Shown here: positions 3,895 to 9,660 of the stretch, piece by piece
How positions within the stretch are numbered: the first letter of the stretch is position 1
How the letters are laid out: every line of letters begins with the position of its first letter
Virus record (IMG/VR): IMGVR_UViG_3300029945_000585
Length of the DNA stretch: 32,551 bases
Direction: 5' to 3' (one strand)
From: a virus
Position numbers and translations under genes: made by a program
The notes under the pieces: model-generated
What the model saw: the letters and a program-made list of their open reading frames with translations, nothing else
The model's database searches: none
What the model was told of the DNA's origin: nothing

Positions 3895-4370
3895 AAAACC
3901 TGTATGGCTATGAAAAGCAGCAGGCGCAGCCTTGGGATAATGAATCAGTCATCCTCGATCGGGATGGCTACGAAAAGACGCATTCGCATTTAGGTGGCTA
4001 CGAAAACGCCGACAGCTACAAAAATCTGCTGAGCCGTCACCCCGTTGGTATCCGGGATGCAGTCATTCCTGTTCGAATGGCTACGAAAACTGGCTTGCGT
4101 AGCGGCTACACGGGCTGATGGGATGCAGCCACTCCTGTGGCTACGAAAAGGAAGGGGAGTTGCCTACGACCATTCCGGGAAGTATTTGCACGGCATGATA
4201 GCAAAGGCGCTATTACAGTCATCCATCTTGTTTGGCTGGCTACGGAAACGGAAGACCTCAAATGGGGGACGATCGGATGCAGCCATCCGATGGATGGCTA
4301 CTAAAATCATGAGAGTCCGCGCACGACGAAGCTCCAGTCACCCGGTATGGTGGATGGCTACGACAAACTT
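3895..4370 (+). repeat. Block of ~9 decayed CRISPR repeat units in inverted orientation relative to the main array (units read ...CAGTCAyyCTnnnCGnnTGGCTACGAAAAC on + strand)
   Basis: Recurring GGCTACGAAAA(C/G) motifs at ~60 bp period: 3907, 3964, 3997, 4080, 4140, 4240, 4298, 4356. The best unit, gggatgcagtcattcctgttcgaatggctacgaaaac, is the reverse complement of the 36-bp repeat with ~8 mismatches. Confidence 0.6.
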
Positions 4371-4620
4371 TAACATCTTGTGCCGCCAAAGACTAAATAC
4401 TTGCATGACCCTGCGAGAACTTTTGCAAATCACCGAGCGAAAACATTCATTGCACTATCACGCGCGACTCAATCCGGAGAACATGTGGTTCGACATCGTG
4501 GACATGAACGATCACGTGGTGGCGATCGATGTGTCGCCCAATCCCAAGCGGGCGCGAGAGATTGCGGCGACCTTCTATCCAGGGCAGATCATCGAGAGCG
4601 CCCGCCAGTCCCAAAGGAAT

Positions 4621-4905
4621 CGTAGTTCTCGTAGCCATCAAGAGGATGACTGTTCATAGCCGGGGATCGACGCCTGGGGACGTCCGCTCTTTTCGTAGCC
4701 TTTTCGTAGCCGCCACAATGTGTGACTGGCGTTGACGCCAAGGCCAAGGCCGACCTAGAGCTTTTACCGTAGCCTTTTCGTAGCCGCCATCCTCAGCATA
4801 ACCTTTTCGTAGCCGCCTCTGACTGACTGAATCGTAGCTATTTGTCCCTCAGCATAACCTTTTCGTAGCCATTTCGGGTGACACCTACTGTTTTCGTCGC
4901 CCTTC
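4621..4905 (-). repeat. Decayed CRISPR repeat units (same orientation as main array), distal fossil end
   Basis: Repeated tcgtagcc / ttttcgtagcc / gtgactg fragments (for example ccttttcgtagccgccatcctcagcataaccttttcgtagccgcctctgactgactgaatcgtagc). Confidence 0.5.
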
Positions 4906-5079
4906 GTGATCGTCCTGTGATCGATTCTCGTGACCGTGCGCAGCCTCGGTTGCGATCATGGCCTGCAACTCGTGTCAGATCGCACACCAGAGTGTATGCT
5001 GGCGATCGGGTTGGGTCAACCGTTTGGTTTGATCGAACTTCATGTTAAATAATGAAAACACTGAGGATGCCAACAAACG

Positions 5080-5838
5080 ATGAGTATTCGCGCCTGGATG
5101 CGGCTGGTGGAGGCGATCATGTCCCCCGCAGCCCCACCGCCCGTCACCGAGACGGCCGCCTTCCAGCAGTGGTTTGCGGGCAGTAAGGTGGTCGATAAGG
5201 CGGGGAAGCCGCTCCGCTGCTATCACGGCACCCAATCGGACTTTCATACGTTTTCCAATGAGGATGCGCCGGGGCGGGGCGGTCTGTTGGCGTTCTTTTC
5301 GGTGAAGCCGCAATTTGCCAGTTCCTATGCCTCGGACGAGCGCTCGCCTGAGGTGCGGGCGGGCGCCCAGGTGATGCCGGTCTATCTGCGCATCGTCAAT
5401 CCATTCGATTACCGCAAAGATTATCACATGGCCGGGAGTTTCTATGATGAGACCGGCGGCATCCAGGATCGTTTTGAGAGCAACCGCATCCTCATGGGCC
5501 TCGGTTGGAAGATCGATAACATTGACGATGTCTCGACGCCGCTGCTGACGGAAAAGCAGTTTACCAGGGCACTCCGCAAGGGCAGTTGGGATGCCTTGGA
5601 GGCGCCGGACTTCGTGGAGTATATCCATGATGCTGGTTATGACGGGATCGTGTTGATGGAAAACCGCAGCCTCAACTTCGCCATCTTCGAGGCTAATCAG
5701 GTTAAGAGCGCGATTGGCAATCGGGGGACCTTCGATCCCGAGTCCGATCACATTGGTGAATCCGCACCGGCGCGCGATACCGGGTGGCGGGCGTTTCACC
5801 GTATTTCACGGCTCGGCCGCAAACACCCTGAGGTCTAG
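5080..5838 (+). CDS. CTS-like N-peptide family protein with diphtheria-toxin-like (H-Y-E clade) ADP-ribosyltransferase motifs
   Basis: ATG 5080 (MSIRAWMRLVEA...). GAGGA Shine-Dalgarno and TTAAATA upstream. CYHGTQSDFHTF matches the YHGT NAD-binding His motif of diphtheria toxin/exotoxin A. Downstream FFSVKPQFASSYASDE and GIVLMEN are candidate Tyr and catalytic Glu regions. Gene sits between decayed CRISPR blocks. Confidence 0.6.
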   Translation: MSIRAWMRLVEAIMSPAAPPPVTETAAFQQWFAGSKVVDKAGKPLRCYHGTQSDFHTFSNEDAPGRGGLLAFFSVKPQFASSYASDERSPEVRAGAQVMPVYLRIVNPFDYRKDYHMAGSFYDETGGIQDRFESNRILMGLGWKIDNIDDVSTPLLTEKQFTRALRKGSWDALEAPDFVEYIHDAGYDGIVLMENRSLNFAIFEANQVKSAIGNRGTFDPESDHIGESAPARDTGWRAFHRISRLGRKHPEV

Positions 5839-6089
5839 TATTTTAGGGAAAACGTGCCATTGCCGTGATCGATTAGCTGGTCGGTGCGATGCAAGGAGAA
5901 CGTGCCGTCGCAATGATCCAGAAGCTGGATGTCGCCGGTTTCGAGGTAATACACCACCGAGTCGTGCGCCTGTTCGCGCGTGACGCCAGCAGGGATTTTA
6001 TCGTAGTCGAGACAGCTTTCGATGATCGCATCGAGGCATTTGCGAGCGCCTTCGGGAAGTTCTTTGTACGGGACTGTAGGTTTTGTCAT
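5835..6089 (-). CDS. Small hypothetical protein (start at internal Met MTKPTV; ORF could extend to TTG at 6218)
   Basis: ORF 5835..6218. Contains the duplicated C-terminal motif DHCDGTFSLHR / DHGNGTFSLKY. Converges on the ART-like gene. Confidence 0.3.
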   Translation of the reverse strand: MTKPTVPYKELPEGARKCLDAIIESCLDYDKIPAGVTREQAHDSVVYYLETGDIQLLDHCDGTFSLHRTDQLIDHGNGTFSLKY

Positions 6090-8324: not shown

Positions 8325-9216
8325 GTTTTCGTAGCCACCCAACGATAGGGTGACTGCACCCAGGATGATGGTGGCGTACTGGCCAAAGGTGTTTTCGTAG
8401 CCACCCAACGACGGGGTGACTGCACCGACCTGCTCTTGGCAGGTTATCGCAATTTTTCGTAGCCACCCAACGATAGGGTGACTGCACCCGCGCTCACCCG
8501 GATCGTCGATGGCTTTTTGTTTTCCGTAGCCACTTCCTCAATCCAGTTTTCGTAGCCACCCAACGATAGGGTGACTGCACCGAGATCGAGGTGAAGTGGT
8601 TGCCTGTCTGTTTTCGTAGCCACCCAACGATAGGGTGACTGCACCCAAAACCAATGCTGAGGATAATCCGTCCCAGTTTTCGTAGCCACCCAACGATAGG
8701 GTGACTGCACCCATCCTGTCCAGCGGCGCTTGAACGCGCCAGTTTTCGTAGCCACCCAACGATAGGAATACAACGCTCAGTTCGTCAGTTTTCGTAGCCA
8801 CCCAACGATAGGGTGACTGCACCTCCGGCACTCCAGGAGAACGAACAGTTCTAGTTTTCGTAGCCACCCAACGATAGGGTGACTGCATACTCCCGCCATC
8901 TGATCTGCTGTTCCTCGTTTTCGTAGCCACCCAACGATAGGGTGACTGCACCAGACGGTCACGACTGGCTTCTCGTGCATGGGTTTTCGTAGCCACCCAA
9001 CGATAGGGTGACTGCACCACCGAAAGGTTTGTCAACAACCTATTTCCCGTTTTCGTAGCCACCCAACGATAGGGTGACTGCACCCGTTACGATCCGCCAG
9101 ACGCTCTTTCAGGTGTTTTCGTAGCCACCCAACGATAGGGTGACTGCACCCGCTAAACCTCATTCCCCCCTCCCGAATTCGTTTTCGTAGCCACCCAACG
9201 ATAGGGTGACTGCACC
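8325..9216 (-). CRISPR. CRISPR array 1 (conserved core): 36-bp repeat GTTTTCGTAGCCACCCAACGATAGGGTGACTGCACC (+ strand), ~15 units, 28-30 bp spacers; no cas genes adjacent
   Basis: Near-identical repeats at 8325, 8391, 8546, 8610, 8790, 8856, 8919, 8984, 9050, 9116 and 9181, plus intermediate units. Units at ~8517 and ~8740 are truncated. Repeat has an internal hairpin CACCC-aacgata-GGGTG. Read on the minus strand it ends ...GGCTACGAAAAC (stem-loop plus ~9-nt handle), suggesting crRNA sense on the minus strand and a leader at 9217+. Confidence 0.9.
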
Positions 9217-9311
9217 CGCTTCTCGCCATGCTGTTGATTTCTGACGATATTCAGTCTTAATCGCCCGCCAAAAACGGCCGAAATTGCGGATTTACTTGTC
9301 AAAGAACGATG

Positions 9312-9340
9312 ATTTTACGCTCAACCTACCCGTCGATCAA
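9312..9340 (-). promoter_or_regulatory. Candidate sigma70-like leader promoter for array 1 (TTGATC-17-TAAAAT on minus strand)
   Basis: Minus-strand TTGATC (rc of 9335-9340) and TAAAAT (rc of 9312-9317), 17-nt spacer, ~95 bp upstream of the first repeat. AT-rich leader 9217-9340. Confidence 0.3.
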
Positions 9341-9359
9341 ACCATTTCTAAAATCGAAG

Positions 9360-9660
9360 TGCAAGACCGAGGCTTCGTAGCCCGACCGAGGGCTGGTAGC
9401 GCAGTCTTCTTCGAATGGACCGACACGTATTTTCTCGTAGCCCTACCGAAGGCGGGATGGATCGGATCACTGAATTCTGTGGATGGTATGCCAATATCTC
9501 GGTTTCTTGCCAAAGATTTTGTACAAGAAATCGGGGACGGGATATTGCTCCTGGGCAGCGTCATAGCCATCCCGCCAACGAACCGCATCATGATTGGCGC
9601 GCTGTTCGGCCATGTGACGCTCATACGCGGCGTAGCCCTCGCGGACGAACCGCTCGCCGC
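9360..9660 (-). repeat. Further decayed repeat-like units beyond the putative leader
   Basis: cgaggcttcgtagcccgaccgagggctggtagc (9365), ttttctcgtagccctaccgaaggcgggatggatcgg (9432), cgtcatagccatcccgccaacgaaccgc (9560), gcgtagccctcgcggacgaaccgc (9628). Spacing is ~63-65 bp. Confidence 0.4.

Follow-up and report, generated by a model that had tools for sequence, protein, structure and literature searches.

The element described here is a CRISPR locus lying between 3.9 and 9.7 kb of IMG/VR virus record IMGVR_UViG_3300029945_000585; the window refers throughout to the whole 32,551-nt stretch of that record. The locus contains a uniform array (the core) and, outside it, 51 mutated repeat units (the relics) in four blocks of 9, 9, 31 and 2 units. 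We interpret it, with a probability of roughly 60%, as two convergent arrays of the type IV-A family that are rarely renewed and whose repeats have diverged in place, persisting since divergence blocks recombination between them. Under this interpretation, array B would have its leader at 9218-9365 and be read from there, on the minus strand, through the core and then through about 40 relics (8324 to 6603 and 4905 to 4621) interrupted by three genes, while array A (3896-4367, plus strand) would consist entirely of relics. Without nearby adaptation genes such arrays would seldom be renewed, and old repeats stemming from successive repeat versions would diverge where they stand. Diverged repeats sharing too little identity to recombine would escape deletion and accumulate, while the identical repeats of the core would stay prone to it. 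Decay would proceed mostly through insertions and deletions (indels) in and around the repeat's hairpin together with short local duplications. A 12-nt module made of the stem base and the handle would survive, perhaps because it was once under the strongest selection, because it holds no palindrome or G-C runs that invite slippage, or for both reasons.

The relic units are real and far more frequent than chance would allow. Our scoring used the 11-mer GGCTACGAAAA; its reverse complement, TTTTCGTAGCC, is the motif used in an initial annotation of this DNA. In the 2.6 kb of degenerate blocks there are 27 exact copies, 19 copies with one mismatch and 5 with two, as compared to 0, 0 and 8 in the background (54 kb, both strands). 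The shorter motif CGTAGCC is distributed similarly, with 48 forward copies, all within 4630-9631, and 6 reverse copies within 3966-4356. This amounts to 54 copies in the 3.9-9.7 kb region against 3 in the remaining 27 kb of the window. More than 40 relics on both sides of the core had been claimed, and the present count sustains this. The right-hand block had been extended to 9660, but in our analysis it stops near 9474. A called 150-aa gene contains the motifs at 9561 and 9631, which do not convince as units.

Comparison between samples separates the behavior of the core from that of the relics. More than 20 peat-metagenome contigs carry the same sequence with 99.7-100% identity (L numbers denote contigs). 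Most of these carry core spacers 1-12, while L137 lacks spacer 5, L145 has two extra internal spacers, L128 has a different spacer before spacer 6, and in L144 the core has collapsed so that the leader and one repeat are followed by the relic field. All core variants share four leader-proximal spacers; therefore, their differences are deletions and not acquisitions. Ongoing spacer acquisition was considered for the L128 variant and rejected, as the leader-proximal spacers are common to the variants and the differences are internal. The relic field is 99.9-100% identical in every contig of the same phage, and 100% identical across the contigs that differ in their core. Bacterial homologous recombination needs about 20-30 nt of identity. 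Core repeats typically have 35 nt of exact identity in common (median), as compared to 10 nt among the relics, where 0.6% of pairs reach at least 20 nt. The core is thus unstable because its repeats exceed the length of identity that recombination needs, and the relics are stable because they miss it.

Core array, leader and one-sided decay

The core is a genuine CRISPR array. It combines identical repeats (RNA sense GGTGCAGTCACCCTATCGTTGGGTGGCTACGAAAAC) and unique spacers with a leader on its right-hand side, as had been proposed. Truncated and mutated repeats rise in number toward 8325, two 5'-truncated copies are present at 8521-8534 and 8743-8767, and strains differ by whole units. In the sense of the CRISPR RNA (crRNA), the repeat consists of a 5' flank, an 8-bp hairpin (AGUCACCC...GGGUGGCU) and the 8-nt tail ACGAAAAC, and the conserved TTTTCGTAGCC corresponds to the last four bases of the hairpin plus this tail. 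Following a predicted Cas6e-like cleavage at the base of the hairpin, the 8-nt tail would become the 5' handle of the crRNA.

The reading strand is fixed by the order cas6, leader, array in four other contigs (L132, L043, L146 and L147). Because the sense of these relatives corresponds to the minus strand of the window, the leader is placed at 9218-9365 and the trailer runs leftward. RNA folding energies did not discriminate between the two strands. Anchored-helix counts favor the minus strand through a U.G pair and other units favor the opposite strand; therefore, the orientation rests on synteny. The leader has a promoter-like site on the minus strand, with the -35 element at 9340 and the -10 element ending at 9312, and the motif GTTCTTTGACAA at 9296-9307, which is common to the L132 leader and to the sequence just upstream of the units in L114 and L115.

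Decay of the relics is strongly uneven along the repeat. Identity across the relics is 0.948 for the module GGCUACGAAAA (11 nt) and 0.726 for the rest of the repeat, taken as the best of three consensus forms, as compared to 0.661 for random 30-mers scored in the same way. In two thirds of the relic units the rest of the repeat is near random. The motif ACGAAAA occurs 30 times in the fields and is preceded by GCT in 29 of these; therefore, the modules are essentially never truncated. When 5'-arm motifs and modules were searched at equal stringency, 36 of the 37 arms were followed by a module, while about 30 modules had no 5' arm. Truncation is thus strictly one-sided, with about 30 module-only units against 0-1 units that retain only the 5' arm, and the two truncated repeats of the core show the same polarity. 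Relaxed selection alone, which had been offered as an explanation, does not fit decay of this kind. Survival of the module may reflect past selection on the Cas6 site and the handle, as in L147, or a higher rate of indels in the hairpin. In L147, where the primary array stands beside an intact csf/dinG operon, the 9 repeats show 24 changes in the hairpin part and 0 in the 12-nt module (Poisson P ~1e-5).

Part of the hairpin signal nevertheless persists. An anchored helix of at least 6 bp is kept in 18 of 47 relics, against 4.5 in shuffled sequences (maximum 11 in 1000 shuffles), and arms fit their own partners more often than swapped ones (15 vs 9.3, p = 0.004). This excess is modest, and descent from several hairpin versions explains it as well as compensatory change does. 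The 5' arms could not be aligned with MAFFT across their variable loops. At least three unit versions can be distinguished: one with TGCAG...AUCC/GGAU, one with TTCAG...ACCC and a short loop (the GACTGAAAC form), and the current version. The RNA-sense 5' ends correspondingly split into TTCAGTCAC and TGCAGTCA groups, and the sequence grades continuously from full repeats to relics. These results agree with the older repeat variants postulated in the initial annotation, as at least two versions older than the current one are present. The derived ending that many relics were said to share fared less well: its exact form, GGGTGACTGAAAC, occurs only twice, although a looser GACTGAA is found in 8 units. 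Nor is the ending likely to be derived, because the related array of L043 has the TTCAG form, which is therefore probably ancestral.

Layout of the relic blocks

Units are co-oriented inside each block and spaced 10-97 nt apart, and there are no open reading frames (ORFs) between most of them. On the minus strand the order outward is the two units upstream of the leader, the leader, the core and then the 31 units of the main field, where the modal spacing is 63-69 nt, many gaps are shorter, and module-only tandems stand at 6994-7027 and 8127-8152. Five internal repeats mark local duplications within the relic field. Tandem module duplications also occur in the distal block (4690/4701 and 4764/4775), together with an internal 24-nt duplication (4791-4814 = 4847-4870). 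The first unit upstream of the leader has the hairpin AGCCC/GGGCU. Gene callers called nothing between 6472 and 9468 (contig L122).

The block at 3896-4367 had been described as an inverted block. Its opposite orientation stands, but an inversion of the tail is the less likely reading: with a leader-like motif of its own, TCTTTGATATTAAAA, the block looks more like a separate relic array that converges on the first. The pattern of this motif, which was derived post hoc, has only two matches in the window, at 3884-3898 (+) and 9291-9305 (-), where 0.05 would be expected by chance, and TCTTTGATATTAAAA resembles TCTTTGACAA, found upstream of units in L132, L114 and L115. The modules of array A start at 3906, 3966, 3996, 4014, 4079, 4139, 4238, 4296 and 4356, and one possible orphan 5' arm lies at 4032.

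Three genes, an ART-PolyVal gene and two small minus-strand ORFs, separate the main field from the distal block. Family searches gave no assignment for the two small ORFs, and the 84-aa ORF between the convergent arrays had no Pfam or PHROG match. As a separate observation, ART-PolyVal ADP-ribosyltransferase genes occur near type IV-family arrays twice, here and at 16536-17024 of the 555-kb contig L132.

Features of the CRISPR locus and its surroundings in the window
Feature	Position	Strand	Description
Leader-like motif TCTTTGATATTAAAA	3884-3898	+	5' end (RNA sense) of the reverse-oriented block
Relic array A (the former inverted block)	3896-4367	+ (RNA sense)	9 units: 6 with hairpin and module, 3 module-only
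84-aa ORF between the convergent relic arrays	4405-4659	+	Gene call; 3' end overlaps the unit at 4626-4654
Distal relic block of array B	4621-4905	-	9 modules, mostly module-only
ART-PolyVal gene inside the relic field	5080-5838	+	Pfam PF18760, E = 7e-24
115-aa ORF inside the relic field	5835-6182	-	Gene call
108-aa ORF inside the relic field	6146-6472	-	Gene call
Main relic field (trailer of array B)	6603-8324	-	31 modules, several repeat variants
Core CRISPR array	8325-9217	-	13 identical 36-nt repeats, period 66, unique spacers of 26-30 nt
Leader of array B	9218-9365	-	Promoter-like site and conserved motif
Two relic units upstream of the leader	9371-9474	-	Modules at 9382 and 9442
Type I-C array (context, outside the relic field)	32195-32551	+	37-nt repeat GTTTCATCCGTCCTTCGGGACGGGTGTGGATTGCAAC, directly after cas7

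Repeat family, relatives and source element

The repeat family of the studied array is that of type IV-A systems, of which the window carries an orphan member; this assignment is drawn from comparison of repeats and their gene neighborhoods. Related repeats in four other contigs end in GGCU (GGUU in L146) followed by ACGAAAAC or ACGACAAC. The GGCUACGAAAAC end and the same repeat architecture are found directly after a cas6 gene or a csf2-dinG-csf3-cas6 operon in L043, L132, L146 and L147, and the family and its reading strand are therefore fixed. In L043 the array is preceded by a 179-aa Cas6e-like gene; in L132 by Csf2, DinG, Csf3, two unassigned genes and Cas6; and in L146 and L147 by csf/cas6/DinG operons. 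Type IV-A repeats have a Cas6-type hairpin and a handle of about 8 nt, and the window has both, the hairpin as AGUCACCC-loop-GGGUGGCU and the handle as ACGAAAAC; L043, L132 and L147 share this module, and L146 has a close variant. The window contains none of csf, dinG and cas6, which adjoin the arrays in L132, L146 and L147, and no cas1, cas2 or cas4. It has no homologue of the L043 Cas6, and a Cas6 profile search of IMG/VR returned no relative. The 150-aa gene beside the leader was considered as a Cas6 and rejected, as it is not Cas6-like. The operons of L132 (4701-10537), L146 (804-6777) and L147 (1159-6657) are themselves unusual in gene order, being cas7-dinG-cas5-x-x-cas6 or x-x-x-cas6-cas7?-dinG with the latter cas7 tentative, and two or three proteins in each had no PADLOC or Pfam match.

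The window does encode type I-C genes (cas3, cas5d, cas8c and cas7; 26285-32551). The studied array was rejected as their partner, as the type I-C array has an unrelated 37-nt repeat (GTTTCATCCGTCC...GGATTGCAAC). This type I-C system is minimal and its array varies between samples: the window shows at least 5 repeats, whereas L116 (11100-11200) has a single spacer and a degenerate repeat. Its spacer at 32445-32479 matches the viral contigs L114 (6090-6122, 33/33) and L115 (3625-3657, 32/33), where the matched site sits in a small gene adjoining the GGCTACGAAAAC unit cluster. It would thus seem that the element in the window targets a rival phage bearing repeat-like units of the same kind.

The same trait is seen on a smaller scale elsewhere. 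The L043, L132 and L146 arrays carry 1-3 relics each, of another repeat version: that of L146 ends in relics of a different, window-like version, that of L132 has at its end a handle triplicated in tandem and a single relic whose loop is shortened, and that of L043 has a relic with a re-paired stem. The viral and metagenomic contigs L075, L083, L110, L114 and L115 hold clusters of 6-9 heterogeneous units, several with module-only tandems; L114 and L115 are near-identical, and their units stand directly behind the leader-like motif, with a single unit there in L115. Three contigs with MVP genes 60-74% identical to that of the window (L133-L135) lack unit fields, and the contigs of the same phage are near-identical and thus uninformative on selection.

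Wider searches returned no further relatives. When 185k species genomes were scanned for pairs of modules separated by 45-75 nt, only chance matches and coding tandem repeats came up, and neither plasmid and phage DNA searches nor Rfam, including its CRISPR-DR families, gave a match. Exact 22-mers of the three newest spacers had no match in IMG/VR, and the spacers of the type IV arrays, compared with all loci studied here, matched only themselves. Contigs L061, L093, L040, L055, L096 and L107 carry spacerless tandem 37-nt palindromes, TTTTCGTAGCCC-(13 nt)-GGGCTACGAAAA, in which each arm bears the module; a palindromic satellite of 64 nt in L074 is similar. These palindromic-unit contigs came up through the design of the search and we draw no kinship to the CRISPR family from them.

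The source of the window is most likely a huge phage, judging from its gene content, and a large plasmid is less likely. A major-vault-protein-like (MVP-like) gene with an MVP shoulder domain (1353-3842) has thousands of homologues, including relatives on 375-570-kb contigs with phage baseplate genes, and one such contig (L135) also has a phage Gp5 spike gene and HNH genes. GenBank genomes labelled "uncultured phage", 462 and 735 kb in size, also yield matches to the MVP-like gene at 37% identity, and upstream of it lies a giant ORF exceeding 3,545 aa (L122/L125 1-5408). PHROGs gave almost no annotation.

Several features away from the CRISPR locus were also recorded. A methyltransferase of the CMAS family (cyclopropane-fatty-acid-synthase-like) is split between 20599-21135 (-) and 23628-24338 (-), with profile positions 5-90 in one ORF and 90-253 in the other and about 2.5 kb with three small ORFs, one of them DUF7694, in between; this suggests an insertion into the gene. 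A 665-aa ORF (15743-17740) with no family match contains about 21 copies of an 18-nt/54-nt tandem repeat (15845-16233), around which the local GC skew is strongly negative. A 39-nt tandem repeat of 2.5 copies (25530-25625) lies just downstream of an HTH_3 gene (24394-25452).

Alternative explanations and significance

Several observations weigh against divergence in place as a sufficient account. Symmetric neutral decay predicts neither the intact modules that two thirds of the relics keep beside non-repeat sequence nor truncation in a ratio of about 30 to 0-1. One-sided truncation and the recurring module tandems are accounted for only in part; hairpin-stalled replication slippage and mis-sited integration are putative mechanisms for them. 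Module-only tandems recur in five unrelated contigs (the window, L132, L114, L083 and L110), which hints at a specific mechanism or function, and the two units upstream of the leader occupy a position that normal growth of an array would not produce. Furthermore, our searches found no diverged relative of the relic field and therefore gave no measure of purifying selection, and the cognate csf genes of this phage were not found in the 32.5-kb window. Less probably, the 12-nt module may be independently maintained, with many phage-borne copies mimicking the Cas6 site and handle and acting as a sponge or regulator against effectors of type IV-A (or related) systems in hosts or rival phages; or the fields may be the footprint of a one-sided integration or slippage process specific to this repeat family. 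If so, this would explain the 30-to-0 asymmetry, the tandems in five contigs and the viral clusters without a canonical array.

The rival accounts differ in what they make of these facts. It is unlikely, though worth serious consideration, that the relics are maintained as functional RNAs, namely phage-borne, multi-copy repeat mimics that bind Cas6 or Csf proteins from type IV-A (or related class 1) systems of the host or of rival elements and serve as decoys or, through short pseudo-spacers, as crRNA-like regulators. The retained part is exactly the predicted Cas6 cleavage site and 5' handle, helices and own-arm pairing are kept above shuffled and swapped expectations, and IMG/VR viral contigs that lack a canonical array in the vicinity carry small clusters of heterogeneous units whose stems are intact, placed behind a leader-like motif in L114 and L115. 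Solitary repeat units and degenerate-repeat "Cracr arrays" of 2-3 spacers are, moreover, documented anti-CRISPR devices of phages (PMC10651486; bioRxiv 10.1101/2024.10.29.618823). However, about 30 units have no hairpin and are not possible Cas6 substrates, the swap control is modest and several repeat versions would explain it too, and the related phages of L133-L135 do without such fields. Promoter-like sites in the field are not enriched (6 vs 4.1 expected), and pseudo-spacer seeds occur at chance level (4 anchored 11-mers vs 3.2 expected) in the window, L132 and the other loci, a search outside of which the true host or target genome lies. A role as decoy or regulator, like that of Racr or Cracr RNAs, is possible above all for the hairpin-bearing units and the small viral clusters. 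Faulty spacer integration is improbable: here a non-cognate Cas1-Cas2 acting in trans would find the module-side junction correctly but set its second cut within the 36-nt repeat, so that the 3' part alone is duplicated. This would produce one-sided truncation in which the spacer-side end is always kept, partial repeats even inside the young core, and the module tandems seen at array ends in other lineages. According to a preprint, type IV-A systems depend on adaptation modules in trans (bioRxiv 10.1101/2023.06.23.546257), which suits this account as well. Yet the spacers beside truncated repeats, at 12 and 21 nt within the core and 0-5 nt within tandems, fall far below the length of integrase products, and the four leader-proximal spacers common to all variants give no sign of recent acquisition.

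Even less probable is an account in which GGCTACGAAAA acts as DNA, as a protein-binding or recombination site, with its resemblance to CRISPR secondary. It is a discrete 11-12-mer that is never truncated and sometimes stands in tandem at an 11-nt (helical) spacing, and genes do lie between the blocks. A role of the repeats as recombination substrate, for example for cassette insertion, had been proposed. That proposal found no support in the window, where no integrase, transposase, RAYT or partition gene and no cassette-type spacing was found; the units stand 45-70 nt apart with no cassettes between them. An integron-like element would have an integrase and attC-type sites separated by gene cassettes, whereas here no integrase was found and most units have no ORF between them. 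Besides, the module lies inside the canonical repeat of five arrays that are cas-linked or regular (the window core, L043, L132, L146 and L147). An origin outside CRISPR altogether, through chance motifs, REP/BIME palindromes or a coding repeat, is effectively refuted. REP elements have GTAG followed by a hairpin, as do these units, and long spurious minus-strand ORFs cross the region. Against this stand the extreme enrichment of the motif, the identical core repeats with unique 30-nt spacers that grade continuously into relics, the empty stretch left by gene callers, and an Rfam search that indicated no other family. REP/BIME elements would also be accompanied by a RAYT/Y1 transposase and alternate in orientation, whereas the window has no Y1 transposase and its units are co-oriented in each block.

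Arrays with degenerate ends, type IV-A arrays carried by mobile elements and repeat mimics in phages are already known. The new elements are the size of the halo of relics, the arrangement as two convergent arrays that enclose genes, and the one-sided, module-sparing decay shared by the window and a cas-linked relative. As in ordinary trailer ends, degeneration grows away from the leader and the oldest repeats are the most altered. Ordinary arrays, however, have one or a few degenerate repeats, as compared to about 50 over about 2.6 kb in four blocks here, and the present decay spares the spacer-side 12 nt on one side only and includes units upstream of the leader. Retention of such a tail is unusual, as the initial annotation had judged. 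The type IV-A arrays of plasmids and phages resemble the window in repeat architecture, the GGCUACGAAAAC end, location on a mobile element, lack of nearby cas1/2 and the leader motif. The window, with its 36-nt repeats and spacers of about 30 nt, differs in the absence of csf genes from its 32.5 kb and in a halo far larger than the 1-3 relics of its relatives. Arrays in the 2020 survey of huge phages were reportedly compact, and to our knowledge a multi-kilobase relic field has not been reported in huge phages. The CRISPR loci of huge phages that lack adaptation genes (GenBank LR756500-LR756503 match) are similar in their neighboring genes, a minimal type I-C system and a virus-targeting spacer.

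Phage-borne mimics offer the remaining comparison. Racrs are single units directly behind a promoter and often beside acr genes (PMC10651486). Like them, the window has repeat-like units on a viral genome without nearby cognate cas genes, some keeping the hairpin and handle. Unlike them, its units, known here from sequence alone, are clustered by the dozen on a probable phage, mostly without hairpins, and no dedicated promoters were detected; the single unit of L115 behind its leader-like motif comes closer. The Cracr arrays described so far contain 2-3 spacers, represent types V-A, I-B, I-C, I-E and I-F, and carry pseudo-spacers that match cas or toxin promoters (bioRxiv 10.1101/2024.10.29.618823). 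They share with the window phage-borne degenerate repeats and shortened spacer-like inserts, and the L075, L110 and L114 clusters are similar to them. The window differs in that no pseudo-spacer match to targets was found, and seed matches to cas or toxin promoters, as in Cracr or CreA-type RNAs, stayed at chance level in the window, L132 and the other loci.

If repeats have indeed diverged in place as we propose, rarely renewed arrays would be shielded from deletion by their own divergence and would keep a record of old repeat versions while their uniform part keeps collapsing. The one-sided retention would then mark the part of the type IV-A repeat with the strongest constraint or the lowest mutability. 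Another possibility that the locus raises is that phages maintain repeat mimics in large numbers. It also extends the type IV-A repeat family to probable huge phages from peat and documents a phage with two CRISPR repeat families, one of them targeting another phage.

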